Positions 1-63,514 of a stretch of 64,000 nt of DNA are shown here, in pieces. The stretch lies in IMG/VR virus record IMGVR_UViG_3300021368_000002. One strand, 5' to 3'. How positions within the stretch are numbered: the first letter of the stretch is position 1; the number at the start of each line of letters is the position of its first letter. The stretch is from a virus (Duplodnaviria > Caudoviricetes). The translations under genes and the position numbers were made by a program. Under the pieces are notes generated by a model. That model had not been told where the DNA came from. It made no database searches and worked only from the letters and a program-made list of their open reading frames with translations.

Positions 1-51
1 TTATATTGCTGAGAAGCATTATGATGATATGGTAAACAAAAATCTAGTGGG

Positions 52-267
52 GTGGGTGTAATGACTGCAATAACTCACACTAGTTTTTATACAATCACCT
101 GTAAAGTTTGTACTGTAATTAGAAATGCACTAATTGCATTTTTTGTTGGCATGATCGCAATGGGCGAAAATGCTGGCAGATCAAGAGCTGCTGCTGAACT
201 AGCTCGTAACGGAATGATGGATGAAGCCAAAGCTCTAATGCTAAGAAAGGATAAAGAAGATGTATAG
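52..267 (+). CDS. small hypothetical protein
   Basis: ORF track; stop overlaps next ATG at 260; exact start uncertain (52 or 61). Confidence 0.6.
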   Translation: MGVMTAITHTSFYTITCKVCTVIRNALIAFFVGMIAMGENAGRSRAAAELARNGMMDEAKALMLRKDKEDV

Positions 268-370
268 TTGGAAAGACTTAGTTAAAACAACTGCTATCTT
301 TATCGGAATGATGGCATTCCTTGCTGCATTCCTAACATTAAACGGATTGCATTACGCAGGAGTTCTATAA
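260..370 (+). CDS. 36-aa single-TM membrane peptide (MYSWKDLVKTTAIFIGMMAFLAAFLTLNGLHYAGVL)
   Basis: read by eye; below ORF-track cutoff; fills gap between co-oriented genes; hydrophobic core. Confidence 0.5.
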   Translation: MYSWKDLVKTTAIFIGMMAFLAAFLTLNGLHYAGVL

Positions 371-374
371 TAAG

Positions 375-584
375 ATGAGCGGACAACGCCGCTGGTTGAA
401 ATGGTGGGCAAGAACTGTTGGTATGCCTATTGGTATTACCGATGACGACAAACCAGAGTTCCTGCCTATTAGCCAAAAAGACGTAAAGCGAGCTTTATGG
501 GCTCGCACCTTTTGGATCATACTGCACATTCTAACGTGTTTTATGATCATTGCAGGAAACGGCAGAGCATTAGGTCTGTGGTAA
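375..584 (+). CDS. small membrane protein, hypothetical
   Basis: ORF track; C-terminal hydrophobic helix; operon context. Confidence 0.65.
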   Translation: MSGQRRWLKWWARTVGMPIGITDDDKPEFLPISQKDVKRALWARTFWIILHILTCFMIIAGNGRALGLW

Positions 585-618
585 CTGCTACAAAACAGCA
601 CATCACCTATCGCAAGGG

Positions 619-649
619 TTGACATTACGCCAAACCCTTGCTATATATT
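619..649 (+). promoter_or_regulatory. sigma70-like promoter for pseudoazurin operon
   Basis: TTGACA at 619, 17-nt spacer, TATATA/TATATT. Confidence 0.65.
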
Positions 650-678
650 ATACACAGATTTACACGGAAGGAATCGTA

Positions 679-1110
679 ATGAGAAATCTTATCACTGCCG
701 CCGCCCTTGCCAGTTTTATTACAGTACCAGCATTTGCAGCGGATATTTCAATCGATATGTTAAACAAGCGAGATGACGGAGCCAAAATGGTTTACGGTCA
801 AGATATTGCTACTGTTGACGTAGGCGACACTATTACTTGGCTACCAACATCTAAAGGACACAATGTAGAATTTATTGCAGGTCCAGATGGTTGGGAAGCG
901 CCAAAGAAATCTAAACTATCAAAAGAATATTCATATACATTTGACACACCAGGTGTATACTTGTATCAATGCACGCCACACAAAAGCATGGGCATGATTG
1001 CTCTTGTCGTAGTTGGTGAAGACACTTCTAACCTAGACGCAGTAGCTGACGCAAAGGTGCGTGGCAAATCCAAGAAGAAACTCAAGGAACTGCTAGGTGA
1101 CATTAACTAA
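679..1110 (+). CDS. paz: pseudoazurin (type-1 blue copper protein, secreted)
   Basis: signal peptide (..VPAFA); cupredoxin ligands GHNV and YLYQCTPHKSMGM (His, Cys, His, Met); C-terminal pseudoazurin helices; start reassigned to ATG 679. Confidence 0.92.
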   Translation: MRNLITAAALASFITVPAFAADISIDMLNKRDDGAKMVYGQDIATVDVGDTITWLPTSKGHNVEFIAGPDGWEAPKKSKLSKEYSYTFDTPGVYLYQCTPHKSMGMIALVVVGEDTSNLDAVADAKVRGKSKKKLKELLGDIN

Positions 1111-1513
1111 GATAACATCCCGCATACCGGAGTTCTGTATGAGTCATTGGCTCATACGGATTCCACTCATTGTAGTATTCCTACAGCAAGGCTTTGCCAA
1201 ATGGCCTATTGATCTTGACACTGCTGAATCGTTTGGACTAACACTGTTGGTTTGGACGTTTGTTGTGTTGGGTGAGATTGGTGCAGGCTTTGGACTTATT
1301 GCTGGAGGAATACTTTATTATTTTAAAAACTGGATTAAGGAACTAGGTGATCTAATCACACGTTTCTCAGGCATTGTTATCACAGGTATTATGACTGGTG
1401 TCATATGGGTAGGAGAGCCAGACAGTTTTTGGGACGTAATACTTTATGATAACTTCCACGTCCTGTTATGGGTCGGCGGTATGTATTTTGCACTAAGAGG
1501 GAATAGAACATGA
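1097..1513 (+). CDS. DoxX-family membrane protein
   Basis: LIRIPLIVVFLQQGFAKW and LGEIGAGFGLIAG pattern; 3-4 TM helices; start uncertain. Confidence 0.7.
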   Translation: MTLTKITSRIPEFCMSHWLIRIPLIVVFLQQGFAKWPIDLDTAESFGLTLLVWTFVVLGEIGAGFGLIAGGILYYFKNWIKELGDLITRFSGIVITGIMTGVIWVGEPDSFWDVILYDNFHVLLWVGGMYFALRGNRT

Positions 1514-1731
1514 ATAAGCCAAATACAAAATTTGAACTGAGTGTGAAAGATATTAGGATTATCGAAGAAGCACTTAACAATAAAGTATCTCGTAGAAGCA
1601 AGCGGATGCTTGAAGGAGAAGATCCTGAAATACTAATGTCTGAAGCAAAAGAAATTAGAGATCTATTAGGCCGATTGCATAATCAAAAACAGTTTTATCG
1701 TCCAACCAAAGGCGTCTACGTTGGTGGTTGA
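1510..1731 (+). CDS. hypothetical protein
   Basis: ORF track; ATGA overlap with upstream gene. Confidence 0.7.
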   Translation: MNKPNTKFELSVKDIRIIEEALNNKVSRRSKRMLEGEDPEILMSEAKEIRDLLGRLHNQKQFYRPTKGVYVGG

Positions 1732-1756
1732 CAAATACTAAATAATACGTTATATT
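1728..1756 (+). promoter_or_regulatory. sigma70-like promoter with an embedded CTAAATA late-type motif
   Basis: TTGACA(1728)-N17-TATATT(1751). Confidence 0.7.
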
Positions 1757-1791
1757 AATAACACTACACACAGACACAGAAGGAGAATACA

Positions 1792-2103
1792 ATGTCAAAA
1801 GTAGAAACAACCTACGGGGAAACTATCCTCAAACAAACACAAGAAATTGCCGATATGTTTAAACAGGCAATGCCAAAAGTATCAACTAATAAAAACGGTT
1901 ACGAAATTCGCACTAAAGTACTAGAGATGGCTCAAAATAATGTTTGGCAAGATTATCACGCTAAACTGGGTGCATTTGAAACTTCAATTAAGAAGGATGG
2001 TGACGAAGTAGTGACCAAAGTAACAATGCCAGAAGTACCAGGCGTTGACGCTGTGATGGAAGCTGCTGAAAAGTTTTATGCTTTCGTTAACGGTAATAAA
2101 TAA
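1792..2103 (+). CDS. hypothetical protein
   Basis: AGGAG RBS; own promoter and terminator. Confidence 0.8.
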   Translation: MSKVETTYGETILKQTQEIADMFKQAMPKVSTNKNGYEIRTKVLEMAQNNVWQDYHAKLGAFETSIKKDGDEVVTKVTMPEVPGVDAVMEAAEKFYAFVNGNK

Positions 2104-2160
2104 AGTATAACAAAAAGAACATTGTGGGCATAGCCCAGCGTAAAGTAATTTAAAGTAGCA

Positions 2161-2190
2161 GCCCCTAGTTATTAATTTAGCTAGGGGTTA
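2161..2190. terminator. intrinsic terminator hairpin between convergent genes
   Basis: CCCCTAG..CTAGGGG inverted repeat. Confidence 0.65.
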
Positions 2191-2195
2191 ATCTT

Positions 2196-2945
2196 TTATG
2201 GGCTACGATTATTTAGATGTTCTTGATTATCCATTTCGTGTAACACACCTTCACCAAACACGCCCATTTCGTGCGAGCCTGAGATACTTGCTAGTTGGAA
2301 TTGGATGTCAGTCTTTTCTGCGTACACAAATGGTATGCGTCTTTGGATATTCATATTGTTGAAGAATGTTGTTCGTGCTACGTTTAAGATCCTGCCTGAT
2401 TCATTAGCAACATAGTTTCTAAACACCGCAGGTTTTGCCGCTGTGTTATCTGCTGAGAAAGCATCAATACGATATAGAGCAAACTGGTAGCCTCTAGGTA
2501 TAGTCGATATGCTGTCTTGGCAACGACCATCCCCTGGACGTATGCCTTTGTAGTATGTGGGTGTTCCAGCTAAGTCATCGCCTATGTCAATTGTTCCTGC
2601 GTTTGATCCTGCAAGTATGATAGCACCATTTAGTCTTAGATATTCTTTTGTAGTGCTAACCACACTTGTGCCTGCGAGTGTGACTGTTTCACTTATCCTG
2701 TCATAGTTAGCATCTAGTCCTTGTATGAGCAAGTTCATTGTGTCTGCGGCATTGGTGCTTTTGACTTGCATTATCTGTGCGGCTGGAGGAAACACATAGT
2801 CTGTGGTATCACCTCTATACCACATTGCTCTTAGGTTAGTGCCAGCATCTTCATTATAGCCAAATATGTTCCACGCTTCGTTGCCATTAGTTTTACCTAG
2901 TGCAACTGCGGCTTCCCAGTTGATATACTTGTCATTACTTGCCAT
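2196..2945 (-). CDS. hypothetical, beta-rich, possibly virion protein
   Basis: 249-aa ORF downstream of late-type promoter at 3250. Confidence 0.75.
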   Translation of the reverse strand: MASNDKYINWEAAVALGKTNGNEAWNIFGYNEDAGTNLRAMWYRGDTTDYVFPPAAQIMQVKSTNAADTMNLLIQGLDANYDRISETVTLAGTSVVSTTKEYLRLNGAIILAGSNAGTIDIGDDLAGTPTYYKGIRPGDGRCQDSISTIPRGYQFALYRIDAFSADNTAAKPAVFRNYVANESGRILNVARTTFFNNMNIQRRIPFVYAEKTDIQFQLASISGSHEMGVFGEGVLHEMDNQEHLNNRSP

Positions 2946-3231
2946 ATGGTGAAGGGTCCTTCACTCTAATATCTGCTGGATGCTTAGGACCATTTACACC
3001 GCCGCCTGCGTCAGTTGTGACAGCGTCAACTGGAGCAACTACCTCGTTTGGAGCATTACTTAACGGGCTTGCATTGTCTCTATTTTGTAACATTGCAAGT
3101 ATTTGCTTAAATCTACTTGTTTGCTCACCTGGTTCATTAGGTACACTCACATCAACACTCATTGTAGGTTGTTGTTGTTCTTCTTGGTCTAGTAAATCTA
3201 GTACAGCTCTAATAATATCTTGCGCTCGCAT
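2935..3231 (-). CDS. hypothetical protein
   Basis: AGGAG RBS and TAAATA motif upstream; + strand ORF 2939-3235 is its shadow. Confidence 0.75.
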   Translation of the reverse strand: MRAQDIIRAVLDLLDQEEQQQPTMSVDVSVPNEPGEQTSRFKQILAMLQNRDNASPLSNAPNEVVAPVDAVTTDAGGGVNGPKHPADIRVKDPSPYGK

Positions 3232-3249
3232 TTAAAACTCCTGTTATTG

Positions 3250-3264
3250 TATTTAGCGTAAATA
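3250..3264. promoter_or_regulatory. divergent pair of late-type TAAATA promoters
   Basis: TATTTA-GCG-TAAATA between divergent genes; T4 late promoter core is TATAAATA. Confidence 0.6.
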
Positions 3265-3268
3265 ACAT

Positions 3269-4468
3269 ATGATAGATAAAGAACCATTTGAACAGATACT
3301 TAAAGATTTAAAAGATCAAGGCAAGTATCGAGTTTTCAACGATATTGTTAGAGAGCGAGGGGATTTCCCTACAGCCATATGGTATGGACCGTATGCAATC
3401 AAAAATATTGTTAACTGGTGTTCGAATGACTATCTAGGTATGGGTCAAAACAAGGTAGTTATTGACGCAATGCATACTGCACTTGATCAAACAGGAAGTG
3501 GATCAGGTGGCACTAGAAACATTGGCGGCACATCACATTATCATGTTGCCCTTGAATTGGAACTAGCGTCTCTACACAGTAAAGAGAGTGCGCTCTTGTT
3601 CACTTCGGCATATGTCGCCAATGAATGGTCACTAATAGCTCTAAGCAAAATTGTTCCCGACATTGTGTTTTTGAGTGATTCAAAAAATCATGCAAGCCTC
3701 ATACAGGGTATCCGACACAGTGGTGCTGACAAACTAATATGGCAGCACAACAATATGAGTGATTTAGAGGAGAAGTTAGCACAAGTTACCGCCGAAGGAC
3801 GAACACCTTGCATAGTCTTTGAGTCTGTGTATAGCATGGATGGTGATGTCTCGCCAATTTCTTCGATCTGCGATCTAGCAGACACTTATGGTGCTATGAC
3901 CTATATTGACGAAGTCCACGCTGTAGGATTGTATGGAGAAGCTGGAGCAGGGTATCTAGAGAAGCTAGGTATTAAAGATAGGGTTGATATAGTCAATGGC
4001 ACTTTAGGTAAGGCCTTTGGTGTACAGGGTGGATACATAGCTGCCGATAGGACCGTTATAGACGCAATCAGATCTGTGTCTAGTGGATTCATATTCACCA
4101 CCAGCACTAGTCCTGTGATTTGTGCCGGTGCCCTTGCATCTATAAAATATCTAAAAGACCATAATGAGCTAAGAGAACAACATCAAGAAAGAGCTGCTTC
4201 TTTAAAACTTATGCTGAAACAAAAAGGTATAGAAGTATTAGAAGATGCTTGTACACACATCATACCAGTAATGGTAAGAGATGCCAAAAGATGCAAATCA
4301 ATGAGTGATGCATTATTAAATGATTATGGTATATACATACAGCCAATTAATTATCCAACAGTGGCTGTCGGGGAAGAACGTTTACGCATCGCGCCTACTC
4401 CTTTACATACAGATGCGATGATGCATCATTTAGTTGATGCACTTAGAAAGGTATTCGATGAATATTAA
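3269..4468 (+). CDS. hemA: 5-aminolevulinate synthase (PLP-dependent, Shemin pathway)
   Basis: [53 protein letters not shown] (PLP Lys), [13 protein letters not shown]. Confidence 0.95.
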
Positions 4469-4874
4469 AAAAACGTTTTGGCTAGTCTTGGGCTTTATGA
4501 GTCTCGGAATGGCCTATGTAGGAGTTGTCGTTCCTGGCATTCCATTTAGTATCTTCTTAGTATTTGCTGCCTATTGTTTTGCAAAAAGTTCTAAGCGGAT
4601 GCATGATTGGATTTACAATCACAAATACTTTGGTCCTTTCCTAACTAACTGGACGCAAAAAAGTGTGTTTCCTACCAAAGGCAAATACGCAATGATTCTA
4701 GTGATGGCATCGTCACTTGCATTCCTTTGGTTCACTACAGAAAATATCAAAGCTGTTGCTTGGAGCGGAGGGTTCATGGCACTGGTTGCAATTTGGGCAT
4801 GGAGGTTTCCAGGAACAGTCGACGAATGGCAAAGACGAAAAGATCAAGGTCTAAAGATAGGCTGGATAAAGTAA
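4458..4874 (+). CDS. ybaN: YbaN/DUF454 family inner-membrane protein
   Basis: [47 protein letters not shown] matches DUF454 pattern; start ATG 4458. Confidence 0.85.
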
Positions 4875-4885
4875 AGGCCCCGCTG

Positions 4886-5395
4886 TTACAGGTAGGGTTC
4901 CCAACTAGGATGCCGTACATCAATTTCTAATTGCTTACGCTTGTTCACAAGTTCCCAGTAATCAGGTTGGTACGGCATTTTTAGTGGCTTCATTTTCATT
5001 TTGTTGCCTTTGGAACTATTACATGGCCCGCAAGCAGCGACAATGTTGTTCCATGCGGTTTTGCCTCCCATACTAAGTGGTCGGACGTGATCTAATGTTA
5101 ATAATCTTCTAGGGAATTGTGTGTTGCAGTATTGACAAGTGTAAAGGTCGCGGAGGTAAAGGTTAGTTTTAGAGAATCTAGGCGTTCGCCGTCGCCGTTG
5201 AAATTCTTTAAGCATAATCACAGCAGGAACTTTAGTTTCCCAATTTGCACTGCTAACAACCCAATCATCATACCATTCAAGTACATCACACTTGTCTAGC
5301 CACATATAGGTAATGGCTTCTTTCCATTGTACAGCTGATAAAGGTAAGTATGAAACGGGTTGTGCGTCTGCATTTAACACAAGAACATCTGACAC
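4886..5395 (-). CDS. HNH endonuclease
   Basis: RDLYTCQYC..TLDHVRPLSMGGKTAWNNIVAACGPCNSSK; GTG start after AAGGAG. Confidence 0.9.
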   Translation of the reverse strand: MSDVLVLNADAQPVSYLPLSAVQWKEAITYMWLDKCDVLEWYDDWVVSSANWETKVPAVIMLKEFQRRRRTPRFSKTNLYLRDLYTCQYCNTQFPRRLLTLDHVRPLSMGGKTAWNNIVAACGPCNSSKGNKMKMKPLKMPYQPDYWELVNKRKQLEIDVRHPSWEPYL

Positions 5396-5420
5396 AACTA
5401 GAACTCCTTTTGGACTAGTA

Positions 5421-5621
5421 TTAATATTTATCAGTGGGAATACACACAGCTTGAGTATTGGTAGGAAAATAGCCTTCAGAACCACCTACTGTGAAACTTA
5501 GTTTTTCTCTTGCTTCAAAGCATTCTATCATATCATCGAACACATCACCATTAGGTCCTAGTGCATTCACTGCAATAGGATCAGTACCGCCTAAGATAAT
5601 ATATACCAACATCCATTTCAT
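5421..5621 (-). CDS. hypothetical protein (paired Cys)
   Basis: ORF track; tightly packed operon. Confidence 0.65.
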   Translation of the reverse strand: MKWMLVYIILGGTDPIAVNALGPNGDVFDDMIECFEAREKLSFTVGGSEGYFPTNTQAVCIPTDKY

Positions 5622-5872
5622 ATCGATTCACCTTGTTCTATTTGGCTTGCTTCAAGAAAATCTTTTAGTTTGTCCTCATTGACACACAAGAGCTTCTCTA
5701 GGCCATCTCCAGGAAATTCATCTTTCAAATGTAGATATATTGTAGGACCATTATCCTTTACCCATTCTACGCATTGTTCGGGATTATCAAAAATAGGATT
5801 GCTCCAAATGTAAACATCCTTTTGGTCTCCACTATAAACAAGAGACATAATTGCAACTAGGAAGACTTTCAT
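5618..5872 (-). CDS. hypothetical protein
   Basis: ORF track; 4-nt overlaps. Confidence 0.7.
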   Translation of the reverse strand: MKVFLVAIMSLVYSGDQKDVYIWSNPIFDNPEQCVEWVKDNGPTIYLHLKDEFPGDGLEKLLCVNEDKLKDFLEASQIEQGESI

Positions 5873-6222
5873 TGAGTAGGCCCTCCACTATAGGGTGCGA
5901 AATTTTTTCCTGTCATTAACATACAGCCTATTCCATCACCAAAAATCTGCATTACCGAAAATGTTCCTGTGTCTTGATTGGTAAAGAAAAATAATCCTCC
6001 CGTCATCATTTGGCCACTTCGTGCTTCAAAAGTAACCCCGTCGCCAAAAAACAAAAGTTCTTCACCATATTTTTCTGTTACCAGTGTCATCATTTCCGGT
6101 GCATAGTCACACGCTGAACGTGTGAAATAAAATCTCTCTTGGGGTTGGGTTTCTTGGGCTATACTTTGAGCTCCAAACACAACCGCAAGCAGAAAAAATG
6201 CAACCGCGGTTAGTTTGGTCAT
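5869..6222 (-). CDS. secreted hypothetical protein
   Basis: signal peptide; AGGAG RBS. Confidence 0.75.
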   Translation of the reverse strand: MTKLTAVAFFLLAVVFGAQSIAQETQPQERFYFTRSACDYAPEMMTLVTEKYGEELLFFGDGVTFEARSGQMMTGGLFFFTNQDTGTFSVMQIFGDGIGCMLMTGKNFAPYSGGPTQ

Positions 6223-6232
6223 ATCCGTTCTC

Positions 6233-6346
6233 CTATCTGTTCAGATACTCCAAATAGTTTTGAGCCACAAGCTGATCTATTTTGTCTTGTAACTTTCGCC
6301 ACTCCTTGGAGTCTTCAGCATAACGGCTTTGATCCTGTCTAAGCAT
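6233..6346 (-). CDS. 37-aa hypothetical peptide
   Basis: read by eye; fills gap in operon. Confidence 0.4.
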   Translation of the reverse strand: MLRQDQSRYAEDSKEWRKLQDKIDQLVAQNYLEYLNR

Positions 6347-6348
6347 TT

Positions 6349-6900
6349 TTAGAACCAGGCTGATATTGTTTCCTTCGTGCATTGTTCTAACGCCTTTTCC
6401 CATTGTTTTTCACCATCATACTGAAATACTATAGCACGGTCTGCTGGCATTGTCAACCACCCATTGTAATTTTGATAAGGAAAAGTTCCGTTTATCTCTG
6501 CTTGGAGCTGACCCTTAGACCATACTGCTAATCCTGTGAACACTCTATACTGTCTTGGAGCGTTACCAGTGCCTATTTTTTCTATCATAAATTCATCACT
6601 ACTAGCGGCTAGGCCCCGCTGTAGCAGGTAGGTATTACCACTATACCAATCATCTTCATGCACCAATGTGACGGCTTGCCCATTTACAGGCCCACCACAA
6701 TGTATCACTTCGTCTGTGATTGCAGGGCAACCTTTAGATTCTAAAAAACTCTGGAATGGAAAATTACTAGGTTTATTTAATACTACACCAACGCTGCCAT
6801 TATCAGCGTCTTCAATCATTAACACCACAGACCGGGTAAACATCCTATCTTTTAGATTAGGATGTGCGATTAGTAGATAGCCTTGGAGACTTTTTGACAT
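6349..6900 (-). CDS. yqgE: YqgE/AlgH (DUF179) family protein
   Basis: LLIAHPNLKDRMFTRSVVL, GSVGVVLNKP, GGPV, RVFTGLAVWSKGQLQAEI..GW. Confidence 0.9.
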   Translation of the reverse strand: MSKSLQGYLLIAHPNLKDRMFTRSVVLMIEDADNGSVGVVLNKPSNFPFQSFLESKGCPAITDEVIHCGGPVNGQAVTLVHEDDWYSGNTYLLQRGLAASSDEFMIEKIGTGNAPRQYRVFTGLAVWSKGQLQAEINGTFPYQNYNGWLTMPADRAIVFQYDGEKQWEKALEQCTKETISAWF

Positions 6901-6908
6901 AATATCTC

Positions 6909-7154
6909 CTAACTGTAATCCGGTAAAGGTCCGCCGTGAGCTTTTCCTTTAATCTTTTTACCACCAACCTTAATTCTTCTCTTGCCTACCTTATGACTTT
7001 TATTGCCACTACGGGTTCTAAGGCCTTGGCTTTTACAACTAGCCAACGCTGAGGCTCCTAATTTAGAATTAGGTTTGGAAGAACGACAAAGCTCTTTAGA
7101 GGCTTGCCATTCTTCAATATCTTCGACTAATGTTAATAATTCATCTATTCTCAT
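6909..7154 (-). CDS. small basic protein, hypothetical
   Basis: ATG 7154 just downstream of GATAAATA; Lys/Gly-rich. Confidence 0.7.
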   Translation of the reverse strand: MRIDELLTLVEDIEEWQASKELCRSSKPNSKLGASALASCKSQGLRTRSGNKSHKVGKRRIKVGGKKIKGKAHGGPLPDYS

Positions 7155-7155
7155 G

Positions 7156-7371
7156 CTATCTGTATTTATCCGCAGGATTATCAAAATCCGTGTCGGCTGA
7201 TTCGCATAATCTGAAAGTCAGCGCCTTTCGAGGTCCCCTGGTTGTATTGATATTGATCTCTCCTGATTTCTCATGGAATTCTATTTTCGTGATTTTAGCT
7301 CTATCATTTTTTGGTCCGACAAGTATCTCTTGTCCTAACTCTAGGTTAAGATTGATATTCTTCAATGTCAT
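7156..7371 (-). CDS. hypothetical protein
   Basis: AGGAG RBS; ATAAATA upstream at 7413. Confidence 0.7.
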   Translation of the reverse strand: MTLKNINLNLELGQEILVGPKNDRAKITKIEFHEKSGEININTTRGPRKALTFRLCESADTDFDNPADKYR

Positions 7372-7499
7372 GGGATTCTCCTTTTCGACTCAAAGGGCTG
7401 AGGCCTTCAAAGTATTTATTTTTCCAAAACAGGTTGACAATCTGTAGAGACTATAGTATATTGTATAGACAATGAGGCAACGAACTGAGGGGTTCAAAC

Positions 7500-7772
7500 A
7501 TGAAAACACTTAAACAATATATCAACGACAACAACCGTTGGATCGCAATTTTTGGCAATCCGCAGATGTCGTTTCCATTATCGCAAAAAGATGTAGATGA
7601 ACTGGCACAGACACTAGACAGCAACCTGTCTCCAGAAAATTTACATTGCGATGGTGAGATTTCGGTTGCAGAAGCAAATCGTAAATATCGCTTCTATGCA
7701 ACGGTAGCCGCAGAGCTTGAGGCATACTGCCGTTCAAACTCGCTTGCAATGCCAACCATTTACGAACTTTAA
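7500..7772 (+). CDS. early hypothetical protein
   Basis: behind promoter 7434 and GAGGGG RBS. Confidence 0.85.
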   Translation: MKTLKQYINDNNRWIAIFGNPQMSFPLSQKDVDELAQTLDSNLSPENLHCDGEISVAEANRKYRFYATVAAELEAYCRSNSLAMPTIYEL

Positions 7773-7783
7773 GAGGGACTGAT

Positions 7784-8116
7784 ATGTATTACATCTACGA
7801 ACAATCGACTACCTATATCATTGGCAAGCCAGACCGCAATGGTGTGGCTCGTCCAGATCATCGTCAGAGCTATAAAACAATGGCGGCGGCCAAAGCCGGG
7901 CTCACACGAATTGCAAAGGCGGAAGGCTTGTTGAAGACAGATCCTAACCATGCTGAGTATCGTTATGCGATAGCAGAAGCAGATTATTTCCATAAGAACA
8001 TTGAGAAGCAGGTGAAGCGAAAGGTGCTTGAAGGCTTTGGTGGCAAGGAGTTTATGGAACCTATCAACACCCCTTCCTATATGTCACCGTCAAGTGAATC
8101 ATATTGGAGTATGTGA
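7784..8116 (+). CDS. early hypothetical protein
   Basis: GAGGG RBS. Confidence 0.8.
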   Translation: MYYIYEQSTTYIIGKPDRNGVARPDHRQSYKTMAAAKAGLTRIAKAEGLLKTDPNHAEYRYAIAEADYFHKNIEKQVKRKVLEGFGGKEFMEPINTPSYMSPSSESYWSM

Positions 8117-8117
8117 T

Positions 8118-8642
8118 ATGGGAATGAAAATTACAGATTTTGTCCACGATGGTTTTTGCAAGATTGCTGATGTAAGATGGCATCCATGCGAACAAAGAAT
8201 TAGAGAGGGTAAATGGACTTTGGTAAACACAAACGACCTACTCCTCTTTTCAGAGCATGATAGTTGGATCTATTGTATTGTAGAAGGCGACATCATTAAG
8301 AAACTTGGCGAAACAGGTAACCCCTTAGGCGTGCAGAACAAAGATGGATCTTTGGCTACAGGCACCCAGGGCAGACTAGGACGTCTTTGTTCTATGGGCA
8401 GTATCAACTCCGACACCACCGACACCGACACCCGTATTAGATATGAATTGCAAGATTCTATAGATGCAGAGGTTGTATCTATTTGGGCCAAACCATGTGA
8501 GATTGTATATACTACAGTTTCGTTCCATGGACAGGAAAAACAAGTCAAGCTCACCACCCATAAGGATTTAGAAAGAGTGATGCTGGATCATATCTATGCT
8601 GAAACAGGAACATATCCTGATCTAAACAAAGGCAGAAAGTAA
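8118..8642 (+). CDS. GIY-YIG nuclease resembling T4 endonuclease II (DenA)
   Basis: WIYCIVEGDIIKKLGET ~ IYAIAINDELVYIGKT; SIWAKPC ~ EFYARQC; KDLE; PDLN ~ PPWN (by-eye comparison from memory). Confidence 0.6.
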   Translation: MGMKITDFVHDGFCKIADVRWHPCEQRIREGKWTLVNTNDLLLFSEHDSWIYCIVEGDIIKKLGETGNPLGVQNKDGSLATGTQGRLGRLCSMGSINSDTTDTDTRIRYELQDSIDAEVVSIWAKPCEIVYTTVSFHGQEKQVKLTTHKDLERVMLDHIYAETGTYPDLNKGRK

Positions 8643-8718
8643 CCAAAAGAGGTTGACATTTGCTAGTGTCGACCTTATTATGTATGTATAAGTTGAAACA
8701 ACAGACAAGAGGGTAACA

Positions 8719-8994
8719 ATGTCTAATTCAGTAACAAAAGCCGTCCAAGAGATTTACAAAATGGACAACGATCAGCTCAACCAAGTCGTTGAAGCGATTA
8801 AACTTCGTAGAACTTATTTGACTCGTGAGGCAGCTCGGTCTTTCCGAACAGGACAGATTGTGTCGTTTACATCTCGCACAGGTGGCAAAATTACAGGTTC
8901 TATTCAAAAGGTCAACCGTAAGTATATTATCGTTGATGCCCATGTAGGTGGCACACGATACAAGGTGCCTGCGTCAATGCTGGAGACTGTATAA
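8719..8994 (+). CDS. early hypothetical protein, SH3-like pattern
   Basis: promoter 8653; GQIVSF..ITGSIQKVNRKYIIV. Confidence 0.8.
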   Translation: MSNSVTKAVQEIYKMDNDQLNQVVEAIKLRRTYLTREAARSFRTGQIVSFTSRTGGKITGSIQKVNRKYIIVDAHVGGTRYKVPASMLETV

Positions 8995-9194
8995 TGTTAG
9001 CCTATTGCGATTACATTGCAGACACTATCAAGCGATCATTTAATAATGACAAGCCTGATAATATGATTAAAAGTGTAGGTCCTATTCAAATGGACCTACA
9101 TCCAACCGAAGGGTATTTCCTGTCTACCAAAAAGACGATGAGCATGACAGACATGAACGGAAAGACCTATATGATTACAATAGAGGAGGCGTAA
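8994..9194 (+). CDS. early hypothetical protein
   Basis: TAATG coupling. Confidence 0.75.
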   Translation: MLAYCDYIADTIKRSFNNDKPDNMIKSVGPIQMDLHPTEGYFLSTKKTMSMTDMNGKTYMITIEEA

Positions 9195-20302: not shown

Positions 20303-20379
20303 GGGCCATTAGCTCAATTGGTTAGAGCACCGGACTCATAATCCGTAGGTTGACAGTTCGAGTCTGTCATGGCCCACCA
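20303..20379 (+). tRNA. tRNA with CAT anticodon, most likely Ile2 (lysidine type)
   Basis: GGGCCAT/ATGGCCC acceptor, CT-CAT-AA loop, TTCGAGT T-loop, encoded CCA; paired G1:C72 argues against initiator. Confidence 0.88.
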
Positions 20380-20382
20380 GAA

Positions 20383-20459
<77 letters not shown>

Positions 20460-20464
20460 ATACC

Positions 20465-20549
20465 GCTCGCGTGGTGAAATAGGTAAACACAACGGACTTA
20501 AAATCCGTCGCCGATAGGCTTGCCGGTTCGATTCCGGCCGCGAGCACCA
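20465..20549 (+). tRNA. tRNA-Leu(TAA)
   Basis: GCTCGCG/CGCGAGC acceptor, ACGGA-CT-TAA-AA-TCCGT, long variable arm, CCA. Confidence 0.95.
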
Positions 20550-31242: not shown

Positions 31243-32016
31243 TCAGTTTCGGACAAGTATTTTAGTTATTTTATTTGCTGGATCAGCTGTAGCAACAAAT
31301 CTTATAAAGCTATATACTCCATTGAAATTTATTGCTGTTGGTTGTGTTTCTGATCCAGAAAAAGTTACAGTGTCAATATCACTCCAGTATGTACCGCCTA
31401 TGATTTGGTTTTCTAAAGTTCCTTGAACTTTTACATCTCCTGAATAAGAATCTGTGTAAATTGCAGCAGTATGTAGTGCATCGTTGCCATTTATTCCTGG
31501 CTCAGCAGATACGGCTTCACTAACCCATGTTTCGTTGTCCTGGAGGAAGGTTTTTACTTCTACAGAAGCTAACGCTCCTGGAAATGCACAACTACTTAGT
31601 TTCATTGAACCACAAGCATCAAATGCAGTGTTAACATAGGTTAAGGTATTACTGTTTGTATCTTCTAAATAGATTGTATAACTTAAAAATTGATCATTAA
31701 CATTAAGTGTATCGTTGTCTGCAATTACGAATTTAAATAAACCTTTTGTAGAAGTAGTAGAACCGTCATCTAAAACAGTAGCGGACTTTTTTATAATCTG
31801 TCTATTGCTTTCATCGTGTATTACAATATATGGTGTGGTTGTAACTGTAATAGGTTTTTGATCTGCATTTAACAGCCTGAATTCGACCGTGTTATCGATC
31901 CCTCTGTATAAATTAATTTGTCTATGATACACTGGCTTGTACTCCGTAATGAAACCTGCTTCGTTTGAAACAATGTTGATTCTGTTTTTTACTAAATAGG
32001 TATAATGTAATTGCAT
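31243..32016 (-). CDS. hypothetical, beta-rich, probably virion protein
   Basis: late motif 4 nt upstream of ATG. Confidence 0.75.
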   Translation of the reverse strand: MQLHYTYLVKNRINIVSNEAGFITEYKPVYHRQINLYRGIDNTVEFRLLNADQKPITVTTTPYIVIHDESNRQIIKKSATVLDDGSTTSTKGLFKFVIADNDTLNVNDQFLSYTIYLEDTNSNTLTYVNTAFDACGSMKLSSCAFPGALASVEVKTFLQDNETWVSEAVSAEPGINGNDALHTAAIYTDSYSGDVKVQGTLENQIIGGTYWSDIDTVTFSGSETQPTAINFNGVYSFIRFVATADPANKITKILVRN

Positions 32017-32036
32017 ATTGTATTTATTGGATTTAG

Positions 32037-43607: not shown

Positions 43608-44349
43608 AATTTGTTCCGTACTGTATTTCTATTAATTTCAAAGGTTGTTGGCTTTCATTGCAAAGTTGATGCCATTGTCCTTGATGTATATGCAACGACT
43701 CATGTTCTTTATATCTGCCGTATAATTCTATATCTGTTGATGCATTTAATGTATAAACAGTTGCTTCTCCCTCATCAACAAACCAGTGTTCTGCCCTATG
43801 TTTGTGCCTTTGCATAGACAACCTCTGTCCTGGTTCGACTGTTAATTCTTTTACCTTAACTTCTTTTCTCGGTTCATGTAACACTCTATAATACCCCCAA
43901 TTTCTTATAGTCTTAGGTGCTTTCCATTCGTCTAGCAACCAACTTGAAGAATTTTTTTTGTCAGTACCTCCTACACCAAATGCAAATTGAACATTTGGCA
44001 TATCCCCGTATGTTTTATATTCTGGAGTTGTGAAGTCTGTGCGATCTCCGCCATTGGCGAAAATTATTTTTTTTCTGCCGTTAGTGGCCATCGTTTTATA
44101 AATGGCTCCACACGCAGTACCATCTTTGTCATCGAAGCTGAGGACTCTATCTACAACATCTAATTGTTCTATTACACTTACTCTATCCTTAAAAGGCATA
44201 AAAGGTCTGCCCTTTTTATTAGTAAGCCATTCGTCAGAGTTAACCCCAACGTGGAGTTCATCTCCTAACTTTTTTGCTTCTTTAAAATATTCAATATGAC
44301 CGTGATGAAGTGGATCAAATCCACCTGTGACAAGAACTATGGTTTTCAT
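43579..44349 (-). CDS. cytidylyltransferase (RfaE/TagD-like) fused to mannose-6-P-isomerase-type cupin
   Basis: TGGFDPLHHGH, VGVNSDEWL..KKG, FANGGDR, NSSS; R.WG.Y, LSMQRHKHRAEHW, WHQLCN, EDIER. Confidence 0.88.
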   Translation of the reverse strand: MKTIVLVTGGFDPLHHGHIEYFKEAKKLGDELHVGVNSDEWLTNKKGRPFMPFKDRVSVIEQLDVVDRVLSFDDKDGTACGAIYKTMATNGRKKIIFANGGDRTDFTTPEYKTYGDMPNVQFAFGVGGTDKKNSSSWLLDEWKAPKTIRNWGYYRVLHEPRKEVKVKELTVEPGQRLSMQRHKHRAEHWFVDEGEATVYTLNASTDIELYGRYKEHESLHIHQGQWHQLCNESQQPLKLIEIQYGTNCVEEDIERK

Positions 44350-44364
44350 GTACGTATTTAACTG

Positions 44365-50321: not shown

Positions 50322-51899
50322 TCAATAACTACTAATAAAGATAGGCATTGGCGGTTCGTAATCTTCATCCATCTCGGCTGCATTAAAAGTATTATACACT
50401 CTAGGATCCCAATCTTTCATAACACTCATCATACGTATGCAAAGTAGCGCAGCACTGACTAAGTCGTCAGTCATTCCTACCTTGGCTTGGTAACTAGAAC
50501 CTGTTGCCACATAGCCTTTAAGTTCTGATACAAAAGGTTTGGAATGTATTAACATTTTATCATTCTCTATCATTGTTTTTAATCTTGAACAGGCTGTAAT
50601 CTTTGTGCTATGTGTAGTATTAAATCCTTTACGAAACTTTCTTACGTGTCCTTTACGCATGGGTTCACTTATAAACAATCCGGGAATATTCTCTTCCCCA
50701 AAATCGTTTATAACGATTAGTGCTGCTTCTCCTATGCCGTTGTTTTCTACACTCCAATATATACCTGCAGGATTTTGTGTTTCATTTTCTATATATTTGC
50801 ATATATCAGCAAGCACTCTAACTTGGCCTGGTATAGCTGTTGTATTATGTTGCCATTCTGCAACTTGTTCGTATGTAGGAAGCTCAAAAACTTGTATTGC
50901 TGAATAATCGCCACCAGTTCCCATACTAGGATCTAAACCAACAACGTATGAATATTCACTTGATAATTTTTTATACCAGCGTGTTTGTCCCATATTAAGT
51001 AATGGACTTTGTCCCTCAAGGACAGCAAGTTTTATAGAATTTATAAGTGTTTCATCAAATACTAGAAACTCACAGCCATATTCACGTCTAAATTTTTCTT
51101 CGCCAATACGGCCTATTTCTGCTGTTTTCCATTCTTCATCTCTGTCAGGATGCTCGTCCCAAGTTGCAACAAAACTATGGAAGCCGTTTCTTCCTACCTC
51201 ATTTTCATTTCCATGATCATCAAATTTATCTTCTGCTTGTTTCCAAATTGTAGCAAATGTATCTTCATCTGAGTTTGGTGTGCTTGTAATAATAGCACGA
51301 CCACCTGTTGCTAGTGTAGGAGATATTGAAGTCCAAAACTCTTCTGCAATGTTAGGCATAACAAATGCAAACTCGTCACAGTATAGTAGCGAGATAGACA
51401 TACCACGTCCTGTGTTGCCTGTTGTTGTTTGTGAAACAATCCTACTACCGTTCTCAAACTCTATGCTGCCTTTATTGTAACTTGTAACACCTGCTCTAAT
51501 ATGATCAGGACAAGTTTCGTACACATAGCGTATACGTGCCATAATCTCTTGAGCACCTGTGTACTTATGAGCAGCAATAAGAATAGTTTGATCTGGGTTA
51601 AACATTGCGTACCAAGCAAGATAGATTGCCGCACAAGTTGTTTTACCAGTTTGTCTAGGCATCATATTGATGTTAAATCTATATGAATGATAACTGTGCA
51701 TTAGTCGCAGTTGATACTCGTAAGGATCAAACAACAACTTACCTTGCACAGGATGTTGAATATATGCAAAATTTCTAGCAAAGTGCAAGTAGCCTTCGTC
51801 AGGATCCATACATTTCATAAGATCTTCAATTTGATCTTCTGTATATGTTTCTTTTGTATTTGCTTTTTTTGTTAAAACGCCGTCTAAACTTTTACTCAT
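50322..51899 (-). CDS. gp17: terminase large subunit
   Basis: PRQTGKT, GMSISLLYCDEFAF, ITSTPN, GLDPS.G.GGD.S, DDLVSA. Confidence 0.96.
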   Translation of the reverse strand: MSKSLDGVLTKKANTKETYTEDQIEDLMKCMDPDEGYLHFARNFAYIQHPVQGKLLFDPYEYQLRLMHSYHSYRFNINMMPRQTGKTTCAAIYLAWYAMFNPDQTILIAAHKYTGAQEIMARIRYVYETCPDHIRAGVTSYNKGSIEFENGSRIVSQTTTGNTGRGMSISLLYCDEFAFVMPNIAEEFWTSISPTLATGGRAIITSTPNSDEDTFATIWKQAEDKFDDHGNENEVGRNGFHSFVATWDEHPDRDEEWKTAEIGRIGEEKFRREYGCEFLVFDETLINSIKLAVLEGQSPLLNMGQTRWYKKLSSEYSYVVGLDPSMGTGGDYSAIQVFELPTYEQVAEWQHNTTAIPGQVRVLADICKYIENETQNPAGIYWSVENNGIGEAALIVINDFGEENIPGLFISEPMRKGHVRKFRKGFNTTHSTKITACSRLKTMIENDKMLIHSKPFVSELKGYVATGSSYQAKVGMTDDLVSAALLCIRMMSVMKDWDPRVYNTFNAAEMDEDYEPPMPIFISSY

Positions 51900-51906
51900 A
51901 TAGTAT

Positions 51907-52257
51907 TTAACCTATTATATCATCGTAATAACCTGTATCGAATCTCAAGTCAAATAATTTACGTCTACTTTGTTGAATTAATATAGGCACAGGACTGCCG
52001 TAATCTCCGTACTTAGGCTCGCTCCAAAGCCATTCATACTCGTAACTTGTATTAAGTTTTTTTGCTAGTTTTTTTATGCGTCTACGATTTGTATTAGCTA
52101 CAATATAAACAATGGCCTGGTAATTTTCTAAGTGTTGCCACTCACCAGACCATTGCTCTATTTTTATTTCGCCCTTTTTCCAGGCTGCTAAACTCCAAGG
52201 ACAAACAACTTTAATTTTTTTAAAGTATGCTTCCCAATCAACCTTTTCCTCTGCCAC
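51907..52257 (-). CDS. hypothetical protein; start overlaps upstream gene
   Basis: VCPWS..WLWSEP; only GTG starts lie within the upstream gene's tail. Confidence 0.55.
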   Translation of the reverse strand: MAEEKVDWEAYFKKIKVVCPWSLAAWKKGEIKIEQWSGEWQHLENYQAIVYIVANTNRRRIKKLAKKLNTSYEYEWLWSEPKYGDYGSPVPILIQQSRRKLFDLRFDTGYYDDIIG

Positions 52258-55543: not shown

Positions 55544-56776
55544 TTATCTACTTAGTGCATTACTTGCTAATCTTATAGATTTTGGATTATTATTTCTAAT
55601 ATTTGTAAAAAATTCTTCTATATAATAATCTTGGGTACTCTGCGGCAATGATCTAAAATTATTGCCGTTAGTTGTCAACATAAAATGTTGCTCTACTATA
55701 TTATATTTTAATGTGTTGTTTGTTTGCAAAGTGTTTAAAATGTAGTTAGGATCAAGTTTTCTTTCCTCTGATCCTTTTTGAACTGCATTAGTTAAGTTTT
55801 TTTCATTTTTTGGATTTGCAAAAAACACCCCGTTTATTCCTACTTGGTTCTTTGAGTCTTCTTCGCTAAATGTAAGTTCTAAACCATTTGGACGTAAACC
55901 TTCTAGGGATTTATCTTTTGTATTTTGATATGCATCTATTGTTGCTTGATTTATTTGTGCATAATTAGGTTCATGTTTTGTATAAAATGTGTTATCAAAT
56001 ACTTCATCTAAATTATTAACAGTAGATCCTGATTGGTTAGGACTTTCGCTATTTAATCCTACAAAACTTTTTTCTTGATCATAATGCTCAGGCGATGCAA
56101 ATCCTTTTGGTGATTCTAATTCCTCAATTTTGCCTGTGTCATATATAACACTTTCGTATTGTATTTGCATACTATTTTCTAATATTTCAGCACTGCCATA
56201 TGCGTCTAAATTATCATGTTGCCAGGAAGTAATTTTTGGTAATATTAATTTAGCAGTATGAAACGTATGCCTACTAAGAGCAGTTATTTCTATATTATAG
56301 AAGAAAGGTAAATCACTTCCGTTATCAAGACCATAACGCTGACTTTCTCCCATTGGCTGGTATGTGCTATTAACTAGGTAAGGTGCTTGCGTGTCTGCAT
56401 AATAATAATCGTAATATGCTTGCCAAAGTCTTGAACTTACGCCTTCATTATCATCATGAAATCTCACTAGAACAGGAGAATAATCTAATCTTGTTTGTAC
56501 AACTTTTTTTCTATTGTATTGTTGTAGCGTTGTTGTTTCTATATCAAATTTTGGCAAATCAACATATTTTACAAGAAGTCCGATCTCGTTGCCGTGTTTC
56601 TCAACAAAACCTCCAGCGACTTGACTGTTTATTTGAAATGCAACATGATAGAGGAATTTGTTTTTTGGTGCTAATCTATAAAAGTTTTGCACAAAGGTAT
56701 GCGAGGCGTGCCAATAGTCTGCCTGTGAAACATTACCTTTTTGGTTAGTATTGCCGTATTTTACTGTCTTTGCCAT
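55544..56776 (-). CDS. tail-tube-like or baseplate initiator protein (gp54/gp48-like)
   Basis: VDLPKF..QYNRK..PV.VRFHDD tube-fold pattern; adjacent to gp19. Confidence 0.65.
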   Translation of the reverse strand: MAKTVKYGNTNQKGNVSQADYWHASHTFVQNFYRLAPKNKFLYHVAFQINSQVAGGFVEKHGNEIGLLVKYVDLPKFDIETTTLQQYNRKKVVQTRLDYSPVLVRFHDDNEGVSSRLWQAYYDYYYADTQAPYLVNSTYQPMGESQRYGLDNGSDLPFFYNIEITALSRHTFHTAKLILPKITSWQHDNLDAYGSAEILENSMQIQYESVIYDTGKIEELESPKGFASPEHYDQEKSFVGLNSESPNQSGSTVNNLDEVFDNTFYTKHEPNYAQINQATIDAYQNTKDKSLEGLRPNGLELTFSEEDSKNQVGINGVFFANPKNEKNLTNAVQKGSEERKLDPNYILNTLQTNNTLKYNIVEQHFMLTTNGNNFRSLPQSTQDYYIEEFFTNIRNNNPKSIRLASNALSR

Positions 56777-56814
56777 ACTAATATTTATCTGTTTTTTTAA
56801 CTACGTATAAAATA

Positions 56815-60782: not shown

Positions 60783-60892
60783 TGCGTTTTCTCCTTGAAA
60801 GTAAACTGTTTATGCTACTGTATTTAGCATTATGAAACGAAAACACTGTTGTTTACCCCATTAAAAAGGGGCACAAAAGGTGTAAATATAGT

Positions 60893-61231
60893 ATGAGACC
60901 TTTATGTATATGCGGAATGCGCCCTGCTGCTGTTAATTATAAAAAGGGCAAGAAAACCTACTATAGAAAAAAGTGTGAAATTTGTAATAAACACGGCGGA
61001 TTTGGACACGGCATACCAAAATGGAAAATGAAAGGTTATGAGAAAAAAGATACTTGTGAAAAGTGTGGTTTTAAATCTAAGCATCAAGAACAATTTAATG
61101 TTTTCCATATAGATGGAAATTTAGATAATTGTAGATATAATAATCTAAAAACAATATGTGCCAACTGTCAAAGAATTTTACAAAAAGAAGGCAGTAAGTG
61201 GAAACAAGGAGATCTTATAGCAGATTTTTAG
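60893..61231 (+). CDS. HNH/zinc-finger protein
   Basis: CxC, CxxC, CEKC..HIDGN..N...NL..ICANC. Confidence 0.8.
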   Translation: MRPLCICGMRPAAVNYKKGKKTYYRKKCEICNKHGGFGHGIPKWKMKGYEKKDTCEKCGFKSKHQEQFNVFHIDGNLDNCRYNNLKTICANCQRILQKEGSKWKQGDLIADF

Positions 61232-62339: not shown

Positions 62340-62360
62340 TATTTATCGTAACGATAAATA
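62340..62360. promoter_or_regulatory. palindromic divergent late promoter pair
   Basis: TATTTATCG-TAA-CGATAAATA. Confidence 0.75.
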
Positions 62361-62365
62361 TACAT

Positions 62366-63514
62366 ATGCCGAGACTTAGTTTATATAGACCAGAAAAAGG
62401 CAAGGATTATAGCTTCCTTGACAGACAAATTTCAGAAATGTTTTCTGTTGGGGGTACAGACGTACATTTACACAAATATTTAGGTCCTGTAAATACAGAA
62501 GAAAGTGCTAGTACAGCAGATAGGCCCCAATACGACAGTGTAAAAGAAACCAACATACAAGACCTCCTGTTTATGGAAAACAGAGACAGGAAATACGATC
62601 CTGATGTATACACAATAAGAGGCATATACAATGTAGCAGATATTGATTTTAATTTAAGCCAGTTTGGTTTGTTTATGAGTAATGATACATTGTTTATGAC
62701 AGTCCATATAAATGATAGTGTTAAAAGTATTGGTAGAAAAATTATGAGCGGAGATGTTATAGAACTTCCGCATCTAAAAGATGAATATGCTTTAAATGAT
62801 TACGAAGTTTCATTAAAAAGATTTTATGTAATAGACGAAATAAGTCGTGCTGCTGAAGGTTTTTCTCAAACTTGGTATCCGCACTTATATAGACTTAAAC
62901 TAAAAAGCATATACGACGGGCAAGAATTTAAAGATATACTCGACTTGCCAGCTAGTGAAGATAGTGATTTAACTTTGCGTAATGTCCTGTCTACATTTGA
63001 AAAAGAAATGCAAGTAAATGAAGCTGTGGTACAACAAGCCGAAGCAGATAGTCCACTTAGTGGATATGAAACTAGCCATTTATACACTAAACGTGTTGCA
63101 GAAGATGGTACAAATATTATTGAACAAAGTTTTCCAGAAGAAGTTCCTGAAACTGTTTTTGAGCGTATCACAGAAGAAGGCATCAAAGATGATTACGATG
63201 GATACTTAGTTGGCGATGGGTTAGCACCAAATGGCGAATCTTTCGGCTTTGGTATTAACTTTCCATTAGGTGCAGATAGCGGAGATTATTTTTTGAGAAC
63301 AGATTTTTTACCTAATAAATTGTTTAGGTACAATGGATCAAAATGGGTTAGACAAGAAGATAGTGTAAGAATGACTCTGTCTAATACTACAACAAGACAG
63401 ACACAAAAAACTTCGTTTATTAACAATACAAGTACTAGTACAATTAACGGTAGTGAAGTTAAAGAAAGACAAAGTTTAAGTAAGGCTCTAAAAGCTAAGG
63501 CGGATAATAGCTAA
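62366..63514 (+). CDS. neck protein (gp14-like)
   Basis: LSQFGL..DTLF.T, GDVIELP, WYPHLY; between gp13 and gp15 homologues. Confidence 0.75.
   Translation: MPRLSLYRPEKGKDYSFLDRQISEMFSVGGTDVHLHKYLGPVNTEESASTADRPQYDSVKETNIQDLLFMENRDRKYDPDVYTIRGIYNVADIDFNLSQFGLFMSNDTLFMTVHINDSVKSIGRKIMSGDVIELPHLKDEYALNDYEVSLKRFYVIDEISRAAEGFSQTWYPHLYRLKLKSIYDGQEFKDILDLPASEDSDLTLRNVLSTFEKEMQVNEAVVQQAEADSPLSGYETSHLYTKRVAEDGTNIIEQSFPEEVPETVFERITEEGIKDDYDGYLVGDGLAPNGESFGFGINFPLGADSGDYFLRTDFLPNKLFRYNGSKWVRQEDSVRMTLSNTTTRQTQKTSFINNTSTSTINGSEVKERQSLSKALKAKADNS

Follow-up and report, generated by a model that had tools for sequence, protein, structure and literature searches.

Does a phage locus that encodes both a copper electron carrier and an enzyme of tetrapyrrole synthesis represent a single auxiliary gene set, or more than one? 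This question is raised by the region 679-4874 of the 64,000-nt stretch of IMG/VR virus record IMGVR_UViG_3300021368_000002 (hereafter the window, always meaning the whole stretch that was analysed), in which four open reading frames (ORFs) encode a pseudoazurin, a DoxX-like protein, a 5-aminolevulinate synthase (ALAS; viral gene valaS) and a DUF454 protein of the YbaN type. The initial annotation had taken these genes for one respiratory/heme set. All four ORFs exist and are intact, so the gene content that it described stands, but the single set does not: only 17 of 80 ALAS loci also contain a pseudoazurin gene, and in two large relatives 24-32 kb separate it from ALAS, which argues for two independent units instead of one cassette. 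We consider it probable that the stretch, which comes from an uncultured marine jumbo myovirus, carries two auxiliary metabolic units under separate regulation. Most likely, the early unit adds a copper periplasmic carrier and a membrane partner to host respiration or denitrification, while the late unit supplies unregulated 5-aminolevulinate (ALA). The elements of the two units are given below.

619-647, plus strand: sigma70-type promoter read from the sequence, TTGACA (619-624), a 17-nt spacer and TATATA (642-647).
666-671, plus strand: GGAAGG ribosome-binding site preceding the pseudoazurin gene.
679-1110, plus strand: pseudoazurin, a type-1 copper protein with a Sec signal peptide, assigned by profile and solved-structure sequence matches.
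1097-1513, plus strand: DoxX-like small integral membrane protein with a GTG start, overlapping the end of the pseudoazurin gene by 14 nt.
1510-1731, plus strand: orf73, a small protein without family match, overlapping the DoxX-like stop.
3232-3268, between divergent genes: 37-nt spacer with back-to-back late-type motifs, TAAATAC on the minus strand (3249-3255) and TAAATA on the plus strand (3259-3264).
3269-4468, plus strand: 5-aminolevulinate synthase (viral AlaS, valaS), 399 amino acids, assigned by TIGR01821, catalytic residues and tree.
4458-4874, plus strand: DUF454/YbaN inner-membrane protein with four predicted transmembrane helices, assigned by Pfam match; its ATG overlaps the ALAS stop by 11 nt.

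The two units were compared across 80 ALAS loci retrieved from IMG/VR (for the pairing with DUF454, 63 distinct loci, 56 of them with adequate flanks), 80 retrieved viral pseudoazurin loci (53 distinct upstream regions), five large phage relatives, 76 cellular ALAS genes and 401 sampled alphaproteobacterial genomes; as the viral loci are mutually related, the locus counts are not independent. One sampled genome, G250, is flagged as unpublished, and no conclusion drawn here depends on it. The region does not form one operon, since the series of four named genes is broken by two genes on the minus strand (2196-3231) and by two small ORFs on the plus strand. In addition, the promoter contrast that had been noted between the two lead genes was recovered, with TTGACA-17-TATATA and GGAAGG before pseudoazurin and TAAATAA before ALAS, the latter motif being shared with the tail tube gene and other late genes. 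Among the 53 distinct upstream regions of pseudoazurin, TTGAC-N17-TATAT was present in roughly a dozen or more as judged by eye, and the late motif was present in none. The motif at ALAS (core TAAATA at 3259-3264, extending as TAAATAA through 3265) ends 3 nt before the ATG, its core 4 nt before, and no Shine-Dalgarno sequence is visible upstream of this gene. TAAATA(C) likewise stands about 3-6 nt ahead of the ATG in the genes for terminase and tail tube and in several more; at the sheath gene it is placed further upstream. Sixteen of the 57 TAAATA sites in the window fall within 45 nt upstream of a start codon (2.0 expected), and in 32 of 80 relatives a TAAATA lies at most 20 nt from the ALAS ATG. 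From these motifs we infer early expression of the pseudoazurin unit and late expression of the ALAS unit, and such opposite timing signals appear to be undescribed in the searchable literature. As a side observation, TAAATA(C) is followed by an ATG without a Shine-Dalgarno sequence at 3259-3268, 32016-32026, 44349-44360, 51899-51909, 56776-56788, 60883-60893 and 62355-62366; should this motif be a -10 element of the T4 type, transcription would begin at the start codon or beside it and yield leaderless late mRNAs.

By its sequence, ORF 3269-4468 is a true 5-aminolevulinate synthase (EC 2.3.1.37). It scored 572.8 against TIGR01821, whose cut-off is 338.55, and the sister-family models stayed below their own cut-offs (KBL 333 vs 460, BioF 315 vs 426, SPT at most 243 vs at least 500), so that the KBL/BioF identity, which had been put forward as the way in which the ALAS call might break down, fails. 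Its best solved relatives are the bacterial ALAS structures 7x98 (E 5e-138) and 2bwn (E 3e-125). The intact pyridoxal phosphate (PLP) motif seen at first inspection was corroborated by alignment to the Rhodobacter capsulatus enzyme, in which all seven catalytic residues are kept: R21, N53, T82, H141, D214, H217 and K248 of the window protein correspond to R21, N54, T83, H142, D214, H217 and K248, with K248 being the PLP-binding lysine. The residues of heme feedback are lost, as Arg341 stands where the heme-sensing His342 would be, and no cysteine (Cys400) is found at the C-terminus. Since the catalytic residues are kept and both feedback residues are missing, ALA synthesis free of heme feedback is expected.

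The window is phage DNA: PHROGs models for the large terminase, the tail sheath (1077 aa here), the tail tube, fibre proteins and a DnaB-type helicase all have matches in it. Its terminase shares 56% identity with the one from Pseudomonas phage PA5oct (287 kb), and an identical ALAS protein is on record on a 303,728-base contig; we take the source to be an uncultured marine jumbo myovirus whose genome measures about 300 kb and whose terminase resembles that of PA5oct. A nucleotide search with positions 1-9000 of the window against 50,697 deposited phage records gave no match, and the ALAS protein query against the same records returned only KBL/BioF genes and mislabelled bacterial contigs. Relatives of this ALAS at 73-86% identity were found in 452 IMG/VR stretches, on contigs of up to 275 kb, and the neighbouring phage genes orf103, HNH endonuclease, AlgH-like and orf91 recur around ALAS in viral contigs. 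The best true cellular ALAS (Caulobacter, Hyphomicrobium and others) is merely 58-59% identical. In a maximum-likelihood tree with the 76 cellular ALAS, 62 viral rows and four mis-binned rows formed one clade with a support of 100, and this viral clade was retained as sister to the main cellular group when the tree was rooted with a KBL outgroup.

The four mis-binned rows are the ground on which the block could be read as host DNA, through contamination or chimeric assembly: four closely similar ALAS genes (78-81% identity) come from genome bins that carry the labels Polynucleobacter, Crocinitomicaceae, Vibrio and Alphaproteobacteria (L081-L084). All four nest inside the viral clade, at separate places, and three of the four short binned contigs carry the full phage gene order orf103, ALAS, YbaN, HNH, AlgH, orf91, from which we conclude that they are mis-binned phage fragments. 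With the same gene order in dozens of viral contigs of up to 275 kb and a virus-only ALAS clade, the block is phage-borne, and the host-DNA reading is refuted along with the KBL/BioF identity. Mis-binning may likewise explain the 'Rhodobacter-like bin' that Wegner et al. found clustered with viral sequences.

Viral alaS genes were described by Wegner et al. (2024, Nat Commun 15:8783, PMC11480375) in marine and freshwater phages, where they occur alone, in a hemO-pcyX-valaS cassette or in a broken cassette. ALAS from phage CB_2 rescues an E. coli ALA auxotroph and was also active in a lysate assay, many viral AlaS copies are without His342 and Cys400, and the purpose of the hemO-pcyX-valaS cassette was called enigmatic by the authors (PMC11480375). 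An earlier account of huge freshwater phages had already included ALAS in its gene listing (Chen et al., 2020, bioRxiv 10.1101/2020.02.13.942896). The window ALAS is a new member of this published viral group: it is the same enzyme from the same virus-only clade, its signature peptides recur in the alignment and the sequence file of PMC11480375 (one 12-residue peptide 29 times), and, as in the published copies, it is 55-59% identical to cellular ALAS and has lost His342 and Cys400. Whereas the published marine valaS contigs were assigned to T4-like pelagimyophages, the window phage, at about 300 kb and with a terminase like that of PA5oct, is a jumbo phage, and the late-type promoter that is present at its ALAS gene is not discussed for the published valaS. 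Phage ALAS is already an accepted auxiliary gene, and this copy alone therefore adds little. Neither Wegner et al. nor Chen et al., supplements included, mention DUF454, YbaN, pseudoazurin, cupredoxin, plastocyanin or DoxX.

The pairing of ALAS with DUF454 appears to be undescribed in the searchable literature. The downstream gene had been called YbaN, and this identity was confirmed with a PF04304 (DUF454) score of 101.9 vs 35.1, over profile positions 1-114 of 115; the ATG at 4458 is most likely its true start. DUF454 is encoded on the same strand within about 700 nt of ALAS in 51 of the 63 distinct viral loci, directly downstream in 43, directly upstream (with the order reversed) in five and separated by an insert of roughly 710 nt in three. 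Five loci with full flanks are without it, so that the two genes adjoin in 51 of 56 viral loci with adequate flanks. In contrast, no DUF454 gene was detected within 4 kb of any of the 76 cellular ALAS genes with a profile built from viral proteins, which detected 16 of 16 control DUF454 genes at E ≤6e-26. DUF454 itself is present in 100 of the 401 sampled alphaproteobacterial genomes, where its members reach at most about 45% identity to the viral protein, and its coupling with ALAS into a unit is seen in phages only. A DUF454 query against the 50,697 phage records retrieved only mislabelled bacterial contigs. Like E. coli YbaN, the viral protein has four predicted transmembrane helices and a conserved loop motif, SS-x-R-x-H-x-W-x3-H-x2-FGP, which is common to viral and cellular DUF454 (His49 conserved in at least 90%, His55 invariant). 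In an AlphaFold model (mean confidence, pLDDT, of 88.9) the conserved loop lies between helices 2 and 3 of the four, on the positive-rich side that is predicted to be cytoplasmic.

The same counts have to be weighed against the notion that the four genes are unrelated, individually acquired 'morons' in a variable region, and that ALAS-DUF454 adjacency was merely inherited from one ancestor. The scattered occurrence and relocation of pseudoazurin described above would fit this notion, as would the abundance of small unknown ORFs and an HNH endonuclease in the region, and the relatedness of the viral loci means that their counts do not speak independently. However, the adjacency of ALAS and DUF454 survives both the reversed order and the insert, the pair holds together as ALAS diverges to 73% and DUF454 to 50%, and the two genes overlap; in the other unit, the pseudoazurin and DoxX-like genes also overlap and travel together. 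We regard chance assembly of this kind as quite unlikely, and take the ALAS-DUF454 pair to be one of two auxiliary units.

To our knowledge, no role has been assigned to DUF454, a family that is common in bacteria. Some published hints from bacteria concern heme and iron: ybaN of E. coli is predicted to be a target of Fur, a DUF454 gene of Avibacterium is induced by iron restriction, and the domain co-occurs with hemophore secretion and heme oxygenase loci. Besides, the nearest alphaproteobacterial homologue of the viral protein is encoded 4 nt after a hemY-type gene.

The early unit is headed by a cupredoxin whose Sec signal peptide ends after AFA and before ADIS. Its four type-1 copper ligands (His, Cys, His, Met) align to His40, Cys78, His81 and Met86 of 1bqk (E 2e-27), which bears out both the intact copper-ligand motif and the pseudoazurin identity proposed at the outset, and every solved pseudoazurin was matched (E 2e-27 to 2e-20). 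The alignment reaches residue 119 of 124 of 1bqk and so covers the C-terminal helix, whereas matches to amicyanin and plastocyanin end at about query residue 104-112. The protein thus resembles bacterial pseudoazurins (1bqk) in ligand set, length, signal peptide and C-terminal extension. It differs from them in that the viral proteins form their own clade (support 89), with relatives at 64-80% identity in 293 IMG/VR stretches. Its identity to the best cellular relatives is 52-62%, and most of these are encoded in genomes of 1.4-1.6 Mb, at loci with a G+C content of 32-36%. Bacterial pseudoazurins, such as those of Achromobacter cycloclastes, Paracoccus and Alcaligenes, donate electrons to copper nitrite reductase and other periplasmic enzymes.

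A precedent of another kind is the plastocyanin of cyanophages (petE, phrog_515), which is likewise a phage-encoded, exported type-1 copper electron carrier of PF00127, and which is thought to keep host electron transport running during infection. The window protein differs from it in being a pseudoazurin by its best structural relatives, in carrying the C-terminal helix, and in its DoxX-like partner gene; moreover, petE phages infect cyanobacteria, whereas the likely host of the window phage is a heterotrophic alphaproteobacterium. When the pseudoazurin was queried against the 50,697 phage records, the sole match was a distant cyanophage petE (29% identity, E 5e-4), and literature searches in which pseudoazurin or cupredoxin was sought as an auxiliary gene of phages gave no result that bears on marine phages of bacteria. 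In two 1.4-Mb alphaproteobacterial genomes (L249/G064 and L250/G237), about 100 nt separate the cellular pseudoazurin gene from the cellular ALAS gene, the latter being 45% identical to the phage ALAS, and the phage neighbourhood thereby has a cellular parallel in the likely donor lineage. In the relatives G005 (L162 2-502) and G003 (L163 1686-2546), the relocated pseudoazurin adjoins a gene with a weak OMP_b-brl match (20 bits, below cut-off) that may encode a phage outer-membrane protein.

The second gene of the early unit, ORF 1097-1513, had been annotated as DoxX, a family (PF07681) that includes DoxD of thiosulfate:quinone oxidoreductase, MhqP and DoxX of M. tuberculosis. That assignment holds in the form 'DoxX-like' only, going by profile matches: 16 of 18 viral homologues match DoxX at E ≤0.01 (best 3.4e-8), and the window protein is a small integral membrane protein that matches the first part of the profile, but its own match is weak and it has no DoxA-type partner. 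No match was obtained with the family profile against PDB sequences. Within the 80 pseudoazurin loci, the DoxX-like gene is present in 46, in 36 of these directly downstream of pseudoazurin, and orf73 in 39; orf73 is probably the third gene of the unit. The pseudoazurin-DoxX pair, too, appears to be undescribed in the searchable literature. Homologues of the DoxX-like family were found in 10 of the 401 sampled alphaproteobacterial genomes, with the strongest in 1.4-Mb genomes, and one cellular homologue, whose locus has 29% G+C, shares 71% identity with a viral subgroup and clustered with that subgroup with a support of 99. The closest pseudoazurin and DoxX-like homologues being in small low-GC genomes, their sequences point to streamlined, low-GC marine alphaproteobacteria as gene donors and perhaps as hosts, which is in line with the pelagiphage idea of Wegner et al. 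(PMC11480375).

We surmise that the two units act as follows. The pseudoazurin, DoxX-like and orf73 genes would be transcribed early as an operon from a host-type sigma70 promoter, and its products would include a copper electron carrier exported to the periplasm and a small partner protein in the membrane. In the periplasm, by analogy with what is thought of petE in cyanophages, pseudoazurin may serve as an iron-free shuttle added to the host's respiratory or denitrifying chain. The valaS-DUF454 bicistron would follow under its late signal, with ALAS predicted to use glycine and succinyl-CoA for making ALA without heme feedback. Host enzymes would carry ALA on to heme, and the heme may go to cytochromes, or to the phage heme oxygenase and bilin reductase that relatives encode. 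DUF454 may be a partner of ALAS at the inner membrane, in some step that concerns tetrapyrroles or iron, for example binding, retention or transport. What both units would do in infection is surmised from gene identities, pairing and signal motifs.

Several observations weigh against this picture. The late motif shows no overall enrichment in the window (18 TAAATAC vs 15.8 expected), and only its position before starts is biased. The cupredoxin scores 107.4 against the TIGR02375 equivalog, 2.4 bits short of the cut-off of 109.85 (the next family, amicyanin, scores 47.9), for which reason we file it, on sequence grounds, as a divergent viral pseudoazurin. Similarly, the window DoxX-like protein taken alone scores 21.9 against PF07681, below the Pfam cut-off of 23.6. 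For DUF454, comparison of the model with PDB structures yielded only generic helical-hairpin matches (Z <8) and no function based on fold, and the alphaproteobacterial DUF454 genes have mostly non-heme neighbours, a hemY-type gene adjoining 1 of 10 examined and a PCuAC copper chaperone gene 1 of 10. Finally, a phage of roughly 300 kb in a very small cell is physically awkward, and the host inference is weak for this reason.

The late signal on ALAS raises a different possibility for the second unit, namely that ALAS-YbaN mainly feeds the phage heme oxygenase and PcyX and not respiration. Late, unregulated ALA would then push heme towards bilin with the release of iron, and the bilin might be a chromophore of the virion or fibre, or a signal. 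This possibility has real weight because of the late-type signal and the conserved hemO-pcyX genes. An adjacent pair of hemO (heme oxygenase) and pcyX (bilin reductase) is present in all five large relatives, 24-35 kb from ALAS, and corresponds in its separate placement to the published 'broken cassette' type; the three genes were reported as a cassette or broken cassette (PMC11480375), and the motif before ALAS, which is that of structural genes, is conserved in relatives. However, hemO-pcyX was never found within 8 kb of ALAS in the 80 loci, and in the relative examined it belongs to a different unit, behind clpS. A search of the five large relatives with the phycobilisome family PF00502 gave nothing at E ≤0.01, so that no bilin-binding domain was matched by this profile, which also counts against a bilin purpose. 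A scan with the HemO of a relative found 20 loci, none adjoining ALAS, and did not retrieve the published tight-cassette type, the link of the window ALAS to which rests on the shared peptides. We therefore hold bilin feeding to be possible, though not the likelier purpose of the late unit. All the same, a bilin or iron role accords with the late-type ALAS signal and with the presence of hemO-pcyX in relatives no less well than the sustaining of electron transport does. In the 275-kb relative (G001, L161 209-3056, contig 177-180 kb), clpS (Pfam 90.8 bits) overlaps the hemO start and hemO overlaps pcyX, and this clpS-hemO-pcyX unit is followed by a 414-aa gene without family match.

Joining elements of these readings, one may also propose that DUF454 is a dedicated partner in tetrapyrrole synthesis of a late, feedback-free ALAS, whose burst runs through HemO-PcyX to bilin and free iron for a late or virion-linked purpose, and that pseudoazurin and the DoxX-like protein separately form a new, early, iron-free respiratory shunt in phages of streamlined marine alphaproteobacteria. 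We offer this full combination tentatively, and as a whole find it rather doubtful; the preferred reading remains the one of two separately regulated auxiliary units.

Around and between the two units, the following further features were recognized.

1728-1756, plus strand: second sigma70-type promoter, TTGACA-17-TATATT, upstream of orf103.
1792-2103, plus strand: orf103, conserved and without family match, with its own near-consensus sigma70 promoter.
2160-2189, between converging genes: 12-pair hairpin between orf103 and the minus-strand genes, likely a two-way terminator.
2196-3231, minus strand: two overlapping genes of 249 amino acids (phrog_8198) and 98 amino acids, behind the late motif TAAATAC at 3249-3255.
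4886-5485, minus strand: HNH endonuclease (phrog_16726, E 5e-33), abutting the YbaN end.
6349-6900, minus strand: AlgH/YqgE-like (DUF179) gene, a conserved neighbour.

Among these, orf103 belongs to the best-conserved genes of the region, with up to 92% identity and presence in 51 of 80 ALAS loci. The HNH endonuclease is kept at its place in 44 of 80 ALAS loci, which is unusually stable for a homing-type nuclease, and the AlgH/YqgE-like gene, normally a bacterial gene with an unclear role, is conserved in 50 of 80. The small flanking ORFs at 52-267, 375-584, 5618-6222 and 6909-7184 gave no Pfam match. Elsewhere in the window, three adjacent tRNA genes (Met-CAT, Arg-TCT and Leu-TAA) were found at 20303-20549.

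For the DUF454/YbaN family, the near-obligate coupling with ALAS, seen across hundreds of contigs from phages, provides a functional lead, one that agrees with the scattered iron and heme hints from bacteria. The opposite signals of the two units call into question the simple view that phage ALAS sustains respiration, and link it instead to the unexplained bilin genes of phages. With a copper electron carrier in phages whose hosts are heterotrophic marine bacteria, the plastocyanin idea is no longer confined to cyanophages, and the pseudoazurin suggests that viruses target respiration or denitrification where seawater is poor in iron.

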